This document shows, piece after piece, positions 1 through 14,608 of a stretch of 64,000 bases of DNA. The DNA is taken from the sequence record MN850597.1. One strand, written 5' to 3'. This DNA comes from Escherichia phage isim. The stretch's first letter is position 1. The number at the start of each line of letters is the position of its first letter. Made by a program: the position numbers and the translations under genes. The notes below the pieces were generated by a model that saw nothing but the letters and a program-made list of their open reading frames with translations, ran no database searches and was not told where the DNA came from.

Positions 1-242
1 TAAACCTGAATTATTTATAGAAAATACCACAACACCCATTAAGTCTTTGATTTTACACACAAATCCTACAGATATTCAACCTCCATATTTAACATACTTG
101 TAACATATTCCATACTCTACCTGTCTGATCAACTCACCCAACTACATCCTCCATATTTCCCCTGTCTGTACTACTCCTGCCCCGCCGGGAGTCCCGTCAT
201 ATCTGGCTTTCCAGCAAATATCACACCCACAAATATCATTGC

Positions 243-399
243 CTGAAGAGGGTTTCATCCCATAATACATGCCTTACCTGAAGAGCGCTTCATATACCAC
301 GTAAATTTTTTAATTGCCCCCTCCCCGCCGCCGGAGAGGTTGGCTTTTCCCACACAGACCTGAAGAGTCAGCCAGAAATATCTGAAGAGGGTCTAGTTC
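243..399. repeat. Four spaced copies of CTGAAGAG (243, 278, 359, 392) in non-coding DNA
   Basis: Direct reading: cctgaagaggg / acctgaagagcg / acctgaagagtc / atctgaagaggg; no ORF. Confidence 0.6.
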
Positions 400-945
400 T
401 GCCCTGTCATGAGCGGTAGCGACTGGAGTGCTGCCAGGCGGACGAAATGGGAATACTTCTCATTCTTATAACAATTCTCAAATATCGAGGCAGTGAGGCA
501 AATTAATAGGTGAGGCCGTTCACACAATGGCACAACATTTGCAACCTATTTTGTGGGGCTGAATGAGAATACCTATCATTGTGAGAATAGTTATCATTAC
601 GGGCAATTTAACATAATACCCATTATGCGCACCACTGGCGATACATACAGGGATTGATAACATGAGTTACCGTTTACGCACATAACAATTATATTTCTTA
701 CTATTTGTGTGGGATATAGTTAGCAGCCAATAGATTAGATATTAACCTGCGGACTTCTGACCGTCCAGACGTCTAAACGCCCACACAACAAGGGTTATAC
801 ATACACAACTGAATGTAAACAGGGCCGCAAAAATGCTACCATACCAGTTTGTAAATTTTCATGCAGCACTTGACAAAGAGGAGAAAAACTTGTCTGACAC
901 CTTATACACTTTCGACACAATAACGACTGTTATTATTTCATGTTT

Positions 946-3097: not shown

Positions 3098-3315
3098 AGT
3101 GTTTTCCTCTCTTCTGGTTGTTGTGTGGGCACCTTTGCCCCTTCAAGATAAATGTTACCCCACCCCCTGGCAGATGTCAACGGTTTTTATAGTTCTTATA
3201 TGACAGGCAGGCCTGGTGATTGTCTCCACCTGTTCCCAAGTGCCGCCCGTTTAATAAGAATAGCAAAAGGGGCCGAACAAGTCAACCCCAAAATCAGTAC
3301 CAAAACACTTTTTAT

Positions 3316-9289: not shown

Positions 9290-9506
9290 GGCGTTTACTC
9301 CTTTCTCTCTTTGATGTGGTTAGTATAGCTAACCTGTTGACGATGTCAATGATATTTTTAACGCCATAAAACGGCCCTGGGCGATGTTTTCAGGTTAAAG
9401 GGGCGATTGCATAGGTGGGGGCCTTTTTGGCGCTTACAGGGCCAACCAGGGGCGCTATTCGTAGGATAGAAATAAAAAGCCCCGCACAATGGCGGGGCGT
9501 TGGTTG

Positions 9507-9704
9507 CTATTTGTCTTTGTGGCGGTATCGTTCCGCTTGTCGTTCACGTTCCAAAAGTAGGCCCGGCAATTTACGATCATAATGATTCCGCCAGATCTTC
9601 CCAAACCTTTTTGGCTTATTCAGTTTATTGTTACGCTGGCGGCGTTCTGGCAGCTCTTCGGAATCATGAGGGCGCTTTACAATTTTCTCGAAATTAATTT
9701 TCAT
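9507..9704 (-). CDS. small basic protein (about 65 aa; start uncertain)
   Basis: Lys/Arg-rich ORF; internal ATG at 9704 preferred. Confidence 0.4.
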   Translation of the reverse strand: MKINFEKIVKRPHDSEELPERRQRNNKLNKPKRFGKIWRNHYDRKLPGLLLERERQAERYRHKDK

Positions 9705-11471: not shown

Positions 11472-11516
11472 AGCTTTTCCTCTGTGTTGGCGGGATGTTT
11501 CCCGCCTTTTGTGTCT

Positions 11517-11544
11517 AGTTTACTTGAATTTTGCAGCGTGTCAA
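11517..11544 (-). promoter_or_regulatory. sigma70-like promoter (-35 TTGACA, N16, -10 TAAACT)
   Basis: Hexamers read on minus strand upstream of the 11471 start. Confidence 0.45.
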
Positions 11545-11551
11545 CAATTTT

Positions 11552-11950
11552 TTATTCGTGGGCACATGTTACAATGTGCTTTTTATAGCCCAGGTGGGCA
11601 GCAAGTGCCGCCAAAAACTCATCTTCATAGATCCAGCCGTTGGCAGTGATCCCCATAGCATTTAATGCGCTCTCAAGTGCTGCGTTAGCTTTATCATAAC
11701 CGTGACCGCTCGCCTTGCCGCCAGTATAACCGTACTTATTGTTCTTGTTGTCGTGTATCCAAAAAACGCAGTAGTTAGTGTTACCGCTGGCGGCGGCATA
11801 GTACCGGATCTCCGCTACTTCGTGCAAATTATTATCATCGTCCAGGCCAACCAGATTATAAGCCTTGTAAAATCCACGATCACGGCGGCAATTCTTAACA
11901 TCAGAAAAAGAGAAGTCGGCATTGTCAAAATTAAAGGTTGTAGTTTTCAT
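11552..11950 (-). CDS. hypothetical protein (132 aa)
   Basis: ORF with RBS; consensus promoter upstream. Confidence 0.6.
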   Translation of the reverse strand: MKTTTFNFDNADFSFSDVKNCRRDRGFYKAYNLVGLDDDNNLHEVAEIRYYAAASGNTNYCVFWIHDNKNNKYGYTGGKASGHGYDKANAALESALNAMGITANGWIYEDEFLAALAAHLGYKKHIVTCAHE

Positions 11951-11982
11951 GATTTTATCCTCTTAGTGTCTTTTGTGATTTA

Positions 11983-12011
11983 AGTATATTTTGTGTCAGA
12001 CTACGTGTCAA
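11983..12011 (-). promoter_or_regulatory. sigma70-like promoter (-35 TTGACA, N17, -10 TATACT)
   Basis: Plus 12006-12011 tgtcaa and 11983-11988 agtata read TTGACA/TATACT on minus. Confidence 0.5.
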
Positions 12012-12014
12012 TAT

Positions 12015-12212
12015 TTATTTTTTATTAAACCAGTGGTTGATCTGACCTTTTGTCAGGGCGCAACGGTTAAGCTGTTGCAGGGTATAGCTATGACCGCGAC
12101 GAAATTTATAAAGGCCTTGCCCGTTGTTGATGGTTACATCCACCCGGCAAATCACTTGGTCGGTGACCACCTGGCGAGTGTTGCGACGTACTTTGATTCC
12201 GTATGCGTTCAT
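12015..12212 (-). CDS. hypothetical basic protein (65 aa)
   Basis: ORF; RBS AGAGAGGA. Confidence 0.5.
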   Translation of the reverse strand: MNAYGIKVRRNTRQVVTDQVICRVDVTINNGQGLYKFRRGHSYTLQQLNRCALTKGQINHWFNKK

Positions 12213-12296
12213 GATTTTTATCCTCTCTGTTAATTGGTGTGGTGTTGTTCACCTTGCGAGGATAAGAATAACAAGAACTGTCCGAGCTGTCAACCA

Positions 12297-12473
12297 TTAG
12301 TTAAAATTATTTTTTGGGTAGAATTCTCCAGCCGCCGCCCCTGCCAGGTTAACCATCATTTTTTCGTACTCTTCTTTATGTTCCAACGCTCCCACCATAG
12401 CCTTTTCAACCAGGGCGATAGCCTCAGCGTCATTAATAGCTACATTTTCCAGGGGGATCATATTACCTTCCAT
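12297..12473 (-). CDS. small protein (58 aa, MEGNMIPLENVAINDAEAIALVEKAMVGALEHKEEYEKMMVNLAGAAAGEFYPKNNFN), first gene of the early block
   Basis: Hand translation checked; strong RBS GAGGAGG 8 nt upstream; overlaps a likely spurious plus ORF. Confidence 0.45.
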   Translation of the reverse strand: MEGNMIPLENVAINDAEAIALVEKAMVGALEHKEEYEKMMVNLAGAAAGEFYPKNNFN

Positions 12474-12656
12474 TTTTGTACCTCCTCTTCAATTGTTACC
12501 TATCCTATAGCATAGGCCCACCAGGTTTGCAAGCCTTCATTATCTCCTACCTGGTCAGTTAGGCCCTGCCAGGCTGGCCCCGCCAGGTTGCAGCGGTCAG
12601 CGCATCAGGTTAGAAATTTTTTTTTTGAAAAGTGTTGACAGCGGCCCCGCCAGGTG
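12337..12656. repeat. Cluster of GGCCC(C/T/A)(G/A)CCAGG repeats (12337, 12515, 12562, 12576, 12643; one more at 5485)
   Basis: Direct reading of a 12-13-mer recurring five times within 320 bp. Confidence 0.55.
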
Positions 12657-12900
12657 GCAAAATACACCTATCGAAAGGACGGCAGGCACCGGTGACGGGG
12701 GAGACAACCACCGGGGATGGGCGCTGCATGAAATGAGAACGATTATCATTATCGTCTAAAAATTTATGCAAAAACTTCTTGCTTTCTTTGTCCTGTGTGT
12801 TACTATAATAACAAGCCGGGGCAGTAGGGGCCGGGAGACAATCACCGGGCCTGCCCGTTATTCTGCAAACGAGAATGATTATCATTCAAAATTCTAAATG
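12635..12900. repeat. Two tandem copies of a structured non-coding unit (core GGGAGACAAYCACCGGG ... CTGCA-AAA-GAGAAYGATTATCATT), each with a Fur-box-like palindrome
   Basis: Units at about 12647-12760 and 12812-12900; plus-strand TTGACA at 12635 and TATAAT near 12809 precede them; GAGAACGATTATCATTATC at 12735-12753 matches 16/19 of the classical Fur-box consensus. Confidence 0.5.
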
Positions 12901-13059
12901 AGAACTCCTCGCATTTAATAAATTTAATTAGCACGCTAATTACCCTCCGTAACAATTTCCTATAAAATAGTCTCCACTAAAATATTCCCATATAGAAATT
13001 TTAAAAATCCATTTCTGAAAACGAAAAATCGATTTCGTCCCCAAAAATTTCAGGTCGAG

Positions 13060-13200
13060 AGCCGGAACGATTTCCAGAAAATCCGATTCAGAAAACGAAA
13101 AACAGATCGAGTACTGAGAAATTTATCGAGAAAAATTTTCAGAAAATCCAAGCCATGAAATGAAAAGTAGATCGAGTACTGGAAAAATTGTACCGCAACT
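13060..13200. repeat. AT-rich tandem direct repeats (about 52-bp unit: CAGAAAATCC ... GAAAA ... AGATCGAGTACTG ... GAAA)
   Basis: Two near-complete copies plus a partial copy; no ORF. Confidence 0.5.
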
Positions 13201-13419
13201 CACTGATAGTGATGGGTTTTCCGTCATAAATCAATAAGGGTGAGTGGAGAAAGGTATGGTGGAGAGGTGTGTATGTGTAGGAAATCTGGAACGGTGATCT
13301 CGAATATGGTGCAAACGGCTAGATAGGTTGGCACAATTTTCCGCGCCTGTGTTGAAAAAATCCATTTTAGTTTTCGATCCATTTTCTGATTTTCTAAGGA
13401 TTTTAAAATATCCTGGTAG

Positions 13420-13485
13420 GTAAAATATCAAAAGGAGGAAATCCATTTTAGAAATCCTCCTGATCTCTGGCAACCTGATAACTTA
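13420..13485 (-). terminator. Intrinsic terminator(s) ending the minus-strand middle block: hairpin GGAGGA-N15-UCCUCC followed by a U-rich tract, and an adjacent CCTGATA/TATCAGG hairpin
   Basis: Inverted repeats read directly; the U-run follows the first hairpin on the minus strand after the 13491 stop. Confidence 0.45.
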
Positions 13486-13490
13486 AAATA

Positions 13491-13823
13491 TCAGGCTCCC
13501 AGTGTGTTCTTTCCTTTATACAACCGTAAGGGTATAGTTTTTGTAACAGTCCATCTCCCCAGCCCTTCCCAGTTCCAGTTGTAGGCATGGTACCCGGTTA
13601 CGCATGCACTGCTGGAGTGATCATAGGCATAAGAGAACGCTATACGCACCAAATGAAACCAGTCTTTCCACGGTTGTGGTCCGTAAGCTTTTCTCCAACA
13701 CCGACACAAGCTAAATGTCTCAAGAATAGGCAGGATAACAAATCCATACACCGCCACCAGAATAGCCAACGCAATGATTGTCAGGAATACATACCCTGCA
13801 GTTGAAACGATGATCTCTGTCAT
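13491..13823 (-). CDS. membrane protein (110 aa)
   Basis: N-terminal hydrophobic segment VFLTIIALAILVAVYGFVILPIL. Confidence 0.5.
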   Translation of the reverse strand: MTEIIVSTAGYVFLTIIALAILVAVYGFVILPILETFSLCRCWRKAYGPQPWKDWFHLVRIAFSYAYDHSSSACVTGYHAYNWNWEGLGRWTVTKTIPLRLYKGKNTLGA

Positions 13824-14023
13824 TTGTCGTCCCCTTTCTTATGGATATAGATGTGAGAGCCTGCCTGTATATAAATTTCTCGACCATCTTCTGCAAAGAT
13901 ATGAAATACACGATCACCTTCATACTCGATACGTGATATCTTCATAATGGTCTTTCCACCTGGGATGCGGATCTCGTCCCCCACAGCGATGTTCCATGCA
14001 GATTTAAGCTTAAACATCTGCAC
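13820..14023 (-). CDS. hypothetical protein (67 aa)
   Basis: ORF; start overlaps upstream stop. Confidence 0.45.
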   Translation of the reverse strand: MQMFKLKSAWNIAVGDEIRIPGGKTIMKISRIEYEGDRVFHIFAEDGREIYIQAGSHIYIHKKGDDK

Positions 14024-14255
14024 CCTCCTTTGGGAGCTCTAACTCTGGCATAGCCATATACGCCACAACAGGGTTGTAATCAAAGTAGAAATGACCGTTA
14101 ATTATCCCAGTTTTGTGCACATAGTCGCCAGATCCTGCAAGAACAACCTCGCAAACTCCGAAATCCACCTTGCCATTCTCATCTGCCATGGCTACAATAT
14201 ACTTTCCAAGAGGCATGTTTTTAACGCCGTCTACGAATGTCCACCCTTTGTTCAT
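14010..14255 (-). CDS. hypothetical protein (81 aa)
   Basis: ORF in series. Confidence 0.45.
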   Translation of the reverse strand: MNKGWTFVDGVKNMPLGKYIVAMADENGKVDFGVCEVVLAGSGDYVHKTGIINGHFYFDYNPVVAYMAMPELELPKEGADV

Positions 14256-14275
14256 ACTTTATCTCCTGCACGTTC

Positions 14276-14608
14276 TTAAGGCAACCAGTAAACAATCTCG
14301 CCTTTCAGCTTCATGTCGTTTCCAACATAAATTTCCCAGCCATCCATCTTAGCACTTGCAGGCCCAAAGTCAACCGCACCCCTTACCTCTTTCCAGGCTC
14401 TGTAGTCAGGTTGCCAGATATAGAATCCACCTTCTTTGTCCCATGCTCCGTACACTACGTTTAACAGGTTTCCCATTGCAACAATGGTGGGCCGTGGGAA
14501 TAATACATCTACAGATGCGCCACAATTTCTGGTATCTTTTAAGTTGCAATCCCAAAAGATGTCTGCCAGTGTGGCGGCGATAGCTTTACGTCTTTCTAAT
14601 GTTACCAT
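14276..14608 (-). CDS. hypothetical protein (110 aa)
   Basis: ORF in series. Confidence 0.5.
   Translation of the reverse strand: MVTLERRKAIAATLADIFWDCNLKDTRNCGASVDVLFPRPTIVAMGNLLNVVYGAWDKEGGFYIWQPDYRAWKEVRGAVDFGPASAKMDGWEIYVGNDMKLKGEIVYWLP

Follow-up and report, generated by a model that had tools for sequence, protein, structure and literature searches.

What do the two repeated elements at positions 12635-12900 of the DNA of Escherichia phage isim do, and which protein reads the AT-rich palindromes that they carry? A preliminary description of the 64-kb stretch analysed here (the window) had proposed two copies of a non-coding unit, each with a promoter-like start, a GC-rich core and a palindrome resembling a Fur box, and had offered an iron-responsive switch, a pair of small RNAs or a Fur decoy as possible functions.

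Layout and coding status of the two units

The two copies are indeed there: 12635-12900 consists of two related units of about 135 bp each (alignment z = 6.4 against shuffles), and each runs from a rightward sigma-70-type promoter through a G-rich leader with the box GGAGACAAYCACCGG to overlapping Fur boxes. The unit 1 promoter (12635..12663, + strand) reads TTGACA-17 nt-CAAAAT with an upstream TG and 10/12 matches, so that the TTGACA at 12635, singled out before as a promoter start, belongs to a good promoter; its -35, its spacer motif GGCCCCGCCAGG and its -10 are kept across 10 rV5-like sequences. This promoter points rightward, antisense to the flanking genes. The G-rich leader that follows (12670..12728, + strand) is almost invariant in rV5-like phages, and is succeeded by Fur-box cluster 1 (12729..12753), made of two overlapping 19-mers with an offset of 6 bp. 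For unit 2 the promoter lies at 12779..12806 (+ strand), with TTGCTT (12779-12784), a 16-nt spacer and TACTAT (12801-12806), the -10 being preceded by TGn. Our promoter scan required 4 of 6 matches for the -35, which TTGCTT fails, and the unit 2 promoter was read directly from the sequence. The TATAAT that had been placed near 12809 exists, at 12804-12809, and overlaps this TACTAT, but the latter is the better-spaced -10 and its position is kept in distant relatives. The unit 2 leader (12813..12864, + strand) also carries the conserved CTGCCCGTTATTCTGC, and cluster 2 (12865..12889, with 19-mers at 12865-12883 and 12871-12889) holds the perfect 7-1-7 palindrome GAATGATTATCATTC. A degenerate third palindrome, AAATGAGAACTCCTCGCATT, is found at 12896..12915, 29 nt past the second. 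The GC-rich core GGGAGACAAYCACCGGG is present in both units as described, as GGGAGACAACCACCGGG at 12699-12715 and as GGGAGACAATCACCGGG at 12833-12849. A third copy of promoter plus GC core lies elsewhere in the window, on the minus strand at 3206..3285 (TTGACT-17-TATTCT at 3285->3257; GGAGACAATCACCAGGCCTGCC at 3227->3206), and no Fur box adjoins it.

In classical Fur repression the boxes overlap the -35 or -10. No such overlap was found with the -35 or -10 of the unit promoters: the boxes occupy +52 to +84 relative to these promoters, about 60 nt past the -10 in both, and thus lie 50-80 bp downstream. The units therefore do not have the layout of a classical Fur-repressed promoter. A leftward promoter under the Fur box (TTGAAT-18-CAGAAT) was considered and rejected, being weak and absent from unit 1.

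Directly downstream of the units are three iteron-like repeats of about 60-74 nt (12991..13189; AAATCCNNTTC..GAAAACGAAAAA..GATCGAGTACTG..AAATTT), which belong to the same conserved non-coding module. Repeats of the same layout, with GATCGAG and A5T6 tracts, follow the palindromes of PVP-SE1, GAP31, 4MG, BIS47, DU_PP_I, ChuuTotoro and the Aeromonas phage.

The region had also been said to contain no ORF. Taken literally this does not hold, since a 91-aa minus-strand ORF (12610..12885; ORF198 of rV5) covers both units and has been annotated in several records, those of rV5 and Pr121LW among them, but the non-coding status of the region does stand. We give next to no credence to the alternative that the region encodes protein, either from ORF198 or from plus-strand ORFs of 43-44 aa, with the repeats being incidental. 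Beyond the existence and annotation of the 91-aa ORF, everything speaks against it: no Shine-Dalgarno sequence precedes this ORF, its variable columns are distributed over codon positions as 10:11:14 and those of the plus-strand ORF at 12766..12897 as 6:6:4, with no third-position excess, and in L266 the ORF198 frame has internal stops while T-run indels shift the frame of its C-terminus. Moreover, its equivalent is unannotated or split in V18, ECP2309, SYGMH1 and NHEP1. A leaderless 31-aa ORF of PVP-SE1 was likewise discarded, since ESCO13 uses another frame over the conserved bases and the ATG is missing from most relatives. Within the reach of sequence analysis, a coding function of ORF198, and with it the protein reading, is already refuted.

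Palindromes with the sequence and phasing of Fur boxes

The site GAGAACGATTATCATTATC at 12735-12753 agrees with the 19-bp Fur consensus GATAATGATAATCATTATC at 16/19 positions on the plus strand, just as had been noted, and reaches 17/19 on the minus strand, where it reads GATAATGATAATCGTTCTC; the exact run of 13 nt that had been described on the complementary strand is also there, and only 0.03 sites with at most 3 mismatches are expected per window. For the second site the earlier estimate of about 14-15/19 is matched by 15/19 to the 19-mer (read by eye), its perfect palindrome spanning 12873-12887. Scoring with a Fur matrix against controls, which the preliminary description had recommended, gave a clear result. 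The matrix was built from 12 natural MG1655 Fur-regulated promoters, whose own best sites score 11.0-20.4 bits. Cluster 1 scores 13.5 bits at 12729-12747 and 21.9 bits at 12735-12753, and cluster 2 scores 15.1 bits at 12865-12883 and 16.8 bits at 12871-12889. In 200 simulations of the whole window the maximum score averaged 14.7 bits (sd 1.8), and none of 5000 simulations with the local AT-rich composition reached 21.9 bits or produced two separate sites of at least 16 bits. The 64 kb contain 6 sites of at least 14 bits, against 0.93 expected.

The arrangement of the sites is equally characteristic. In both clusters the Fur sites form pairs with a 6-bp offset (12729/12735 and 12865/12871), and palindrome centres at 12877 and 12880, 3 bp apart, constitute dyads in two registers. 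Pairing of sites at 6 bp, combined with dyads whose two registers are offset by 3 bp, is the signature of a Fur cluster (Chen et al. 2007, PMC2189734). Furthermore, cluster 2 has 16 nt, AAACGAGAATGATTAT, in common with the Fur box of E. coli fhuA. The consensus sequences of Zur, CRP, ArgR, KdgR and Cra, compared by eye, fitted worse than that of Fur.

Comparison with related phage genomes, another of the checks that had been recommended, revealed that both the arrangement and the Fur-grade sites are conserved across subfamilies. Vequintavirinae, Stephanstirmvirinae and an Aeromonas phage all keep the order of promoter, leader and palindrome at the corresponding location. Cluster 2 is invariant across 10 rV5-like sequences, the common variant of cluster 1 in relatives (GAGAACGGTTATCATTATC) still scores 20.0 bits, and 10 distant phages carry Fur sites of 14-22 bits at the homologous place, their variants remaining compatible with Fur (that of 4MG, for example, with GATAAT, scores 20.5 bits). 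The position and spacing of the unit 2 promoter are kept in nine distant relatives (PVP-SE1, GAP31, 4MG, BIS47, ESCO13, Hena1, DU_PP_I, ChuuTotoro and CitTr1), all with a better -35 hexamer than the TTGCTT of unit 2, and a constant 60-62 nt or so separates the -10 from the first box in distant relatives. A leader box of 13-15 nt is also conserved across subfamilies, and the box spacing of about 29 nt recurs in ESCO13, DU_PP_I and CitTr1.

Among the relatives compared, the half-sites vary without compensating changes, which argues for a protein site in DNA and not for an RNA hairpin. This bears on the possibility that the units are genes for two trans-acting small RNAs, whose loop GGAGACAAYCACCGG would pair with targets while the Fur boxes would only tune their synthesis. 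Such genes would fit the conserved promoters, the leader box kept across subfamilies, and the three occurrences of this box in the window, each with a promoter of its own ahead of it. Nevertheless, we regard this reading as very improbable. Rfam returned no meaningful match (for the window at the gathering threshold, for the region at E <= 10 and for 10 related loci at E <= 1), a tRNA/tmRNA scan of the related loci found none, and no plus-strand terminator was found in 11500-14500. No consensus structure emerged when RNAalifold was applied to 13 leaders (-0.72 kcal/mol, 3 pairs), single-sequence folds did not exceed shuffles in stability (z from +0.2 to -2.6, mostly near 0), and no covariation is seen among the alleles of the unit 2 hairpin. 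In addition, the sole extra near-perfect match to the box is the third copy of the element and not a target. A decoy of a type III antitoxin, after the pseudo-ToxI of PhiTE, was also dismissed, given that the ToxI-like repeats of DU_PP_I are at 143739, some 69 kb from its module at 74428, and that the palindromes spaced by about 29 nt vary in their half-sites with neither compensation nor covariation of the RNA type. Thus, of the interpretation first offered for this locus, the Fur-box identity and the non-coding nature are upheld, and the small-RNA pair finds little support.

The same sequence is in use in bacteria. Bacterial genomes from many phyla contain the exact 21-mer consensus, 107 times in all, and the 107 flanking ORFs include 8 TonB-dependent receptors, 8 Fe3+-type binding proteins, 7 proteins of the ZnuA family, 6 of the Fur family, 5 ECF sigma factors (FecI-like) and 3 rubrerythrins, with FeoA and FeoB also among the neighbours. 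This company of iron and metal genes marks the 21-mer, in so far as genomic context can tell, as a genuine Fur-family operator. Given the 7 neighbours of ZnuA type, some of the bacterial instances may be read by Fur paralogues.

At the same time, the palindrome is present in more than 120 viral contigs and is common to T5-like phages, Vequintavirinae, Stephanstirmvirinae, the Aeromonas phage, Shewanella phage 1/40, Klebsiella phage K64-1 and environmental contigs. Since these phages are otherwise unrelated, a shared host protein would explain its spread more simply than a shared phage protein. In the environmental contigs the palindrome lies about 10 bp past the -10 of strong promoters, roughly at +8 of the expected transcript (TTGACA-17-TGnTAAAAT-CGGCGCC-palindrome), which is where an operator would sit. 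A scan of viral contigs with ATTCNGCAAAYGAKAAT proved too loose and yielded no further Vequintavirinae modules, and no relevant report on Fur boxes in lytic phages or T5, or on the palindrome sequence itself, turned up in the searchable literature. Altogether, the scores at or above those of natural E. coli operators, the 6-bp phasing, the Fur-compatible variation across phages and the place of the 21-mer beside bacterial iron and metal genes strongly support the earlier proposal that these palindromes are Fur boxes, as opposed to chance AT-rich palindromes. We infer that Fur is also what binds them in infected cells.

A possible gate on rightward transcription and its rivals

From the computed anatomy of the units, their non-coding status, the Fur-grade sites with their phasing, the conservation and the bacterial use of the 21-mer, we infer a role for Fur, the action of a gate and what lies past it. 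We hypothesise that the units are non-coding control elements, whose palindromes serve as host Fur operators gating rightward transcription in a manner dependent on iron or on genome copies, a reading to which we assign a probability of about one half. The sigma-70 promoter of each unit would fire rightward, against the direction of the flanking genes, and the transcript would comprise a G-rich leader of about 55 nt before meeting the overlapping pair of Fur sites (about +52 to +84). With iron plentiful, bound Fur-Fe2+ dimers would block or end this rightward transcription, and would probably also stop read-through that comes leftward from the gene block upstream. Under iron limitation, which leaves Fur inactive, or once replication has spread Fur thinly over many phage genomes, transcription could continue into the iteron-like AT-rich repeats at 12991-13189 and, in antisense, into the neighbouring leftward genes, and this read-through may alter the state of the control region. 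The conserved promoter position with its nearly fixed distance to the first box, and the operator placement of the palindrome in environmental contigs, favour such a gate; against it counts that no iron-related gene is controlled and that nothing obvious is encoded downstream on the plus strand.

The lack of an iron gene under control would also suit a Fur sponge or copy-number timer, in which about six strong sites multiplied by hundreds of genome copies titrate host Fur. Host iron uptake and box-bearing phage promoters would then be derepressed, late events would be tied to copy number, and iron would presumably be supplied to the iron-dependent ribonucleotide reductase that we take these phages to encode. 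That Fur boxes in multicopy titrate Fur is well established, and the FURTA assay is built on it. The sites rival the best host operators and are clustered, with the excess of sites of at least 14 bits reported above (6 against 0.93 per 64 kb), and T5-like phages have boxes at 2-6 places per genome. In the environmental contigs the box follows promoters situated 1-1.3 kb upstream of terminase genes, as would befit late expression coupled to replication. However, E. coli contains thousands of Fur molecules, and with only two clusters per 64 kb titration would be partial; a pure sponge, moreover, would need neither the fixed promoter distance nor the conserved leader. We consider this account unlikely.

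The second of these clusters (446..601) belongs to a 1.8-kb non-coding stretch and scores 12.9 bits at 446-464, 13.0 bits at 562-580 and 16.6 bits at 580-598. The bov10K2 record begins at the equivalent of window position 437, beside this cluster, and the pair of units at 12.7 kb does not lie at a genome end. In Klebsiella phage KPP-1 the boxes fall within and beside the 514-bp terminal repeat. The nearness of boxes to genome ends, terminal repeats and terminase genes is a hint that they act in DNA entry, packaging or replication and not in transcription.

Such roles could equally belong to a phage-encoded protein (an early-gene repressor, a replication initiator or a packaging or entry factor) that binds the palindromes, their likeness to Fur boxes being convergent or an exploited overlap. 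The module would then be an origin or a control region for entry or packaging: either G-rich, primer-like transcripts from the tandem promoters would enter an AT-rich iteron region, as at the primary origin of T7 or oriF of T4, or the region would be comparable to the injection-stop region of T5. Tandem promoters, G-rich leaders and palindromes, followed by iteron-like repeats of 60-74 nt with GATC and A/T tracts, agree with this proposal, as does Repeat Region 3 of T5, where, at the margin of the terminal repeat, the palindromes adjoin DnaA boxes and lead into AAATCCGAC repeats and a G-rich tract. The KPP-1 boxes in a terminal repeat, and the palindromes beside DnaA-box clusters in the environmental contigs L061 and L115, point the same way. 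Furthermore, phage half-sites favour GAGAAT or GCGAAT and bacterial ones GATAAT, a preference that could reflect a different reader with overlapping specificity; GAGAAT is also found in natural operators, namely those of ryhB (GCGAATGAGAATGATTATT), fhuA (AAACGAGAATGATTATT), fecI, exbB and entC. Against a phage protein, the occurrence of the palindrome in such unrelated groups (T5-like, rV5-like, phAPEC8-like and environmental phages) makes a common phage reader seem improbable, the T5 arrays are on the first-entering DNA, which precedes phage gene expression, and the identical 21-mer is an operator beside bacterial iron genes. An origin is further disfavoured by the DnaA boxes (TTWTNCACA), none of which is in the module and only 3 in the whole window against 8.5 expected, and by the GC and AT skew, whose change at 12-13 kb runs opposite to that of a bidirectional origin. 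On balance a phage-encoded reader has, in our view, a small chance of being correct.

Returning to host Fur as the reader, we can extend the gate hypothesis beyond rV5-like phages in a more tentative form. Several unrelated lineages of large virulent phages, namely T5-like, rV5-like, phAPEC8-like, Aeromonas and environmental ones, may have recruited Fur to conserved arrays near their genome ends, sensing the iron state of the host or, by titration, their own copy number, although the odds seem to us to be against so general a statement. It is likewise possible, and again rather doubtful, that this switch acts on transcription, replication or DNA entry, the injection-stop arrays of T5 being Fur-binding arrays and the units of the window the rV5-type version of them.

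The sites suggest that the phages carrying them read the iron state of their host, and Fur-grade sites span lineages with different virion and replication types. If Fur does bind them, infection by rV5-like phages may depend on the availability of iron. Such phages are candidate therapeutic agents against O157 and other E. coli, and both the gut and infected tissue offer little iron. Binding would also imply that replicating phage DNA may derepress host iron uptake, that the two-step DNA entry of T5 is open to direct test in fur mutants or with iron chelators, and that dozens of GenBank records label a regulatory element as a 'hypothetical protein'.

Comparison with known systems

In bacteria, Fur boxes are a textbook feature of iron genes, and the phage sites share with those of E. 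coli (fhuA, ryhB, fecI, fepA-fes) the 19-bp consensus (17/19), arrays of GATAAT/GAGAAT hexamers, 6-bp phasing and dyads in two registers, with scores within or above the natural range and unit 2 equal to fhuA over 16 nt. They differ in being carried by a virulent phage with no iron gene, 50-80 bp past a promoter, in a repeated non-coding unit with a G-rich leader. RyhB and PrrF are similar in that a short non-coding transcription unit has a strong Fur box, and AATGAGAATGATTAT is common to the ryhB operator and the phage box; in ryhB, however, the box lies over the promoter and there is an intrinsic terminator, whereas in the phage unit the box comes after the leader, and neither a terminator nor an Rfam match or structure was detected.

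Phage-borne DNA joined to the host Fur regulon has precedents in the cargo of temperate phages. The stx1 promoter is Fur-regulated. Among lambdoid prophages, the sitABCD operon carries a fur box (PMC6969025). In the sitABCD and stx1 cases the boxes serve accessory operons of bacterial type carried by a prophage, whereas here they are part of a core non-coding control region of strictly lytic phages, conserved across subfamilies.

The primary origin of T7 consists of tandem promoters and an AT-rich region, and oriF and oriG of T4 are likewise transcription-activated origins. By analogy, the units would resemble them in their tandem promoters and in short, non-coding, G-rich transcripts leading into AT-rich repeats, but the unit promoters are of the host sigma-70 type and the skew change lends no support to an origin.

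The closest counterpart in another phage group is Repeat Region 3 of T5 (direct repeats C, palindromes E-I). No interpretation of its palindromes as Fur sites was found in the literature consulted on T5 injection stop. Its array of palindromes at 9468-9640, to which 12731-12915 and 446-598 of the window correspond, has the palindrome family AAATGAGAATCATTATCATTT and variants, which score 14-19.7 bits, at a spacing of about 30-50 nt; short AAATCCGA-type repeats come next, with a tract rich in G and poor in C. In T5, paired DnaA boxes with a 52-bp spacer stand beside the array, inside the 10-kb terminal repeat, whereas the window module lacks DnaA boxes and has promoters and leaders ahead of its boxes. 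The Fur-grade sites described here thus coincide with the injection-stop palindromes of T5, which have gone unexplained for decades.

Two tandem units in a non-coding gap

The two units, each of about 135 bp and composed of a promoter, a G-rich leader and a Fur-box cluster, lie within a 750-bp gap (12480-13230) among small leftward genes, with all flanking genes on the minus strand, and rV5-like coliphages of the genus Vequintavirus (Pr121LW, rV5, bov10K2) are 94-97% identical to the region. All the features named in the preliminary description exist in the sequence. The TTGACA at 12635, put forward as a promoter start, heads a rightward TTGACA-17-CAAAAT promoter with an upstream TG, and the GC-rich core ascribed to both units was found at 12699-12715 and 12833-12849. 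The TATAAT proposed for unit 2 is present at 12804-12809, where it overlaps the rightward promoter of that unit (TTGCTT at 12779, a 16-nt spacer and TACTAT at 12801-12806, preceded by TGn). That the two are copies of one unit agrees with their alignment, which beats shuffles (z = 6.4).

An annotated gene crosses this region, since rV5 and several relatives carry a 91-aa minus-strand "hypothetical protein" (ORF198, 12610..12885) over both units. Across ten rV5-like sequences its frame shows variable columns in the proportion 10:11:14 at codon positions 1, 2 and 3; the relative L266 has two in-frame stops, and the T-run at 12614-12623 changes length by non-multiples of three, altering the C-terminus. 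The ATG falls within Fur box 2 and has no Shine-Dalgarno sequence upstream, and the region is left unannotated in V18, ECP2309 and SYGMH1 and broken into fragmented ORFs in NHEP1. On the codon-position counts, the stops, the frame shifts, the missing Shine-Dalgarno sequence and the patchy annotation we rejected ORF198 as a gene: it is an artefact of annotation in a region that does not code for protein. A 43-aa plus-strand ORF (12766..12897) has variable columns 6:6:4 by codon position (our count).

The T10 homopolymer at 12614-12623 also differs in composition among rV5-like phages (0-6 alignment gap columns) and is two bases longer in one relative, L271. The motif GGCCCYGCCAGGT, with a Dcm site (CCWGG) inside it, occurs five times at 12337-12659, several copies occupying promoter spacers on either strand, and is also found in promoter spacers of PVP-SE1 and ESCO13. 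The first position of the phiWec189 record (LC739538.1) is the exact counterpart of 12731, where palindrome 1 starts, which may reflect an assembly break at a repeated unit or a real end. The phage isim region is also 93-98% identical to 16-17 records named "Campylobacter phage" (MG0656xx), whose host label looks doubtful.

Fur-type operators and their probable reader

The palindromes were scored with a symmetric 19-bp matrix built from one best site in each of 12 Fur-regulated promoter regions of E. coli MG1655 (fepA-fes, fepD-entS, fepB-entC, fhuA, cirA, tonB, exbB, ryhB, fur, fiu, fecI and fecA), the sites of which score 11.0-20.4 bits in sample. The top score in the window, 21.9 bits, is at 12735-12753 in Fur-box cluster 1 (12729-12753), followed by 12871 (16.8 bits) in cluster 2 (12865-12889), 583 (16.6), 12865 (15.1) and 12729 (13.5). 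Six sites reach at least 14 bits, against 0.93 expected, and the mean maximum in whole-window simulations was 14.7 bits. The preliminary description allowed that the match might be no better than expected of AT-rich DNA; among 5000 simulations with the local composition of 12720-13230, none reached 21.9 bits and none contained a pair of separate sites scoring 16 bits or more each. Palindrome 1, described as agreeing with the 19-bp Fur consensus at 16/19 positions, does so at 17/19 on the minus strand, such sites being expected 0.03 times per window, and palindrome 2 includes a perfect 7-1-7 palindrome. Moreover, the sites are paired at exactly a 6-bp shift and have a further dyad displaced by 3 bp, the pattern of Fur site clusters (Chen et al., PMC2189734). 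The E. coli ryhB operator has a GAGAAT half-site as in the phage boxes (GCGAATGAGAATGATTATTATTGTC), which is also carried by the fecI, exbB and entC operators and by that of fhuA (GTAAACGAGAATGATTATTAT), in which 16 nt are identical to unit 2.

The palindrome looks like an array of hexamers that a protein reads and not like an RNA stem, because its half-sites vary independently (AATGAGAAT, AATGCGAAT and AATGATAAT paired with ATTATCATT or ATTCTCATT, mismatches uncompensated) and several instances are perfect dyads in a 3-bp-shifted register. The alternative that the units produce trans-acting small RNAs is poorly supported: the leaders have no consensus structure and fold no better than shuffles, and a search of Rfam gave no match.

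The consensus 21-mer AAATGAGAATGATTCTCATTT occurs exactly at 107 places in bacterial contigs (one genome per species) of Beta- and Gammaproteobacteria, Actinomycetota, Chloroflexota, Bacillota, Bacteroidota and others, where we estimate fewer than about two by chance. On each side we took the longest ORF (100 aa or more) with its start no further than 250 nt away, which gave 107 ORFs; among these a Pfam search found 8 TonB-dependent receptors, 8 Fe3+-type binding proteins, 7 ZnuA-family metal binding proteins, 6 Fur-family regulators, 5 ECF sigma factors and 3 rubrerythrins; FeoA and FeoB turned up as neighbours as well. Since the bacterial copies adjoin iron and metal genes, the 21-mer is, judged from this neighbourhood, a working Fur-family operator in bacteria. 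A reader supplied by the host would be the simplest explanation for the phage copies, because the phages sharing the palindrome belong to apparently unrelated groups and in T5 it is carried by the DNA that enters the cell first. We consider it probable (roughly 0.6-0.7) that Fur binds these sites during infection.

A shared module and a possible link of the boxes to genome ends

A sensitive DNA search detected unit 2, and not the flanking genes, at 72-88% identity in distant phages: Seunavirus (PVP-SE1, GAP31, 4MG), Mydovirus (BIS47, KPP-1), Henunavirus, Certrevirus, one Serratia phage, Stephanstirmvirinae (ESCO13, phAPEC8, CitTr1) and Aeromonas phage 2L372X, the site being without any annotation in almost all of these records. 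The ten distant loci that we read have a rightward layout in common, in a 0.8-1 kb gap among leftward genes: often a small plus-strand ORF, then a promoter with a conserved "RNA1" of about 100 nt, two copies of TTTGTAAAG, a second promoter, a G-rich leader of about 55 nt with GAGACAAnCACCG and CTGCCCGyyATTCTGC, one to five palindromes AAATGAGAATGATTMTCATTY at a spacing of about 29 nt, and iteron-like repeats with GATCGAG and A5T6 tracts. Phages of the rV5 type are without RNA1 and have the second unit duplicated instead. Across the distant loci the first box always follows the -10 by about 60-62 nt. Each locus has 14-22-bit sites at the homologous position, and variants stay Fur-compatible, as in 4MG, where GATAAT replaces GAGAAT and the score is 20.5 bits.

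RNA1 (…AACGCCACCCCACGGCGAAAAGGCGGGGCTAACG…GGAAGGTGGATCGCCGGTAGTTCG), present in relatives (L003 at 1320-1440, L004, L005, L007-L012) and missing from the window, has its own promoter upstream of the unit. It matches nothing in Rfam and no tRNA, and its RNAalifold structure (15 pairs, -11.4 kcal/mol) shows little covariation. A third copy of the promoter and GGAGACAATCACCAGGCCTGCC core lies on the minus strand in an intergenic gap at 3206-3285; its -35 overlaps a terminator-like hairpin (3289-3269), and another promoter lies downstream (3180-3152). This copy has no Fur box, which shows that leader and Fur array can occur apart.

Three more Fur-type palindromes (12.9, 13.0 and 16.6 bits) form a second cluster at 446-601, within a non-coding 1.8-kb stretch (1-1800) about 12 kb left of the units. 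The bov10K2 record starts at the equivalent of 437, 10 bp ahead of this cluster's first box, and by our arithmetic from match coordinates several more relatives' records begin in this stretch. The KPP-1 counterpart of these boxes is located in a mapped 514-bp terminal repeat (PMC9862379); boxes of up to 20.9 bits occur in and just right of the repeat, with the module 8.3 kb beyond. The stretch also holds, at 241-400 and 955-1020, four CCTGAAGAG-type motifs and four 15-nt repeats (A/T)GACTGTTTACRC.

Both the module layout and this association with genome ends would suit a rival explanation, a site for a phage protein, an origin or an entry site. In the window, three iteron-like repeats of 60-74 nt (AAATCCGATTCAGAAAACGAAAAACAGATCGAGTACTG...) at 12991-13189 precede a G-rich, C-poor tract (13225-13320), an arrangement that recurs in relatives and could serve as an origin or in DNA entry or packaging. 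Against an origin, however, DnaA boxes are absent from the module and the skew change has the wrong direction; the consensus TTWTNCACA occurs 3 times in the whole window against 8.5 expected. The skew shift at 12-13 kb (AT from about -0.16 to about -0.01, GC from -0.05 to -0.11 or lower) occurs despite same-strand genes on either side.

The 20-mer AAAYGAGAATGATTMTCATT is present in at least 120 viral contigs in varied contexts. Among the matches listed, the palindrome lies about 10 bp past the -10 of strong promoters, at about +8 of the expected transcript (TTGACA-17-TGnTAAAAT-CGGCGCC-palindrome), adjoins DnaA-box clusters or forms 30-nt-spaced arrays, and in three environmental contigs the promoter-palindrome unit is 1-1.3 kb upstream of terminase small and large subunit genes. 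The recurrent unit TTGACA-17-TGnTAAAAT-CGGCGCCSC-AAATGAGAATGATTCTCATTT (L025 7517, L049 267, L063 3676, L106, L110, L118, L136) often precedes a terminator-like hairpin or a second promoter. At 90% identity or more, 200 phage records, mostly of Klebsiella phages, match ToxI-like (type III antitoxin) repeats; those of DU_PP_I are far from the module.

A possible gate and related elements in other phages

The Fur array stands 50-80 bp past a conserved promoter (about +8 in other phages), which is the position of an operator or roadblock. The best reading of the units is a Fur-dependent gate, in which we infer every step beyond binding by Fur. With iron available, Fur-Fe2+ would block rightward non-coding transcripts starting near 12670 and 12813 and possibly also leftward read-through; if Fur were inactive, or spread over many genome copies, transcription would run into the iteron-like repeats and antisense into neighbouring genes. 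The boxes acting as a Fur sponge or copy-number timer is a rival to this gate.

In cultured phages the palindrome occurs in 712 records, mostly of T5-like phages, which have it at 2-6 places each. In T5 (AY587007), Repeat Region 3 (9468-9640) contains the element as the "direct repeat C" copies and palindromes E-I, with scores of 14.2-19.7 bits. These copies adjoin the DnaA boxes of the injection-stop region, and AAATCCGAC repeats and a G-rich tract come after them, in much the way seen at 12990-13320 of the window; Davison's analysis of the T5 region says nothing of Fur. A further T5 site of 18.4 bits (228-252), 230 bp in from the left end, is contained in the coding sequence of dmp (124-858, minus strand). 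We found no mention of such Fur arrays in lytic phages in the searchable literature, the nearest report being a fur box ahead of sitABCD on lambdoid prophages. The type of element is already known and its setting appears to be new: arrays that follow promoters and lie close to genome ends, in core non-coding regions of lytic phages, common to several phage families and including the injection-stop palindromes of T5.
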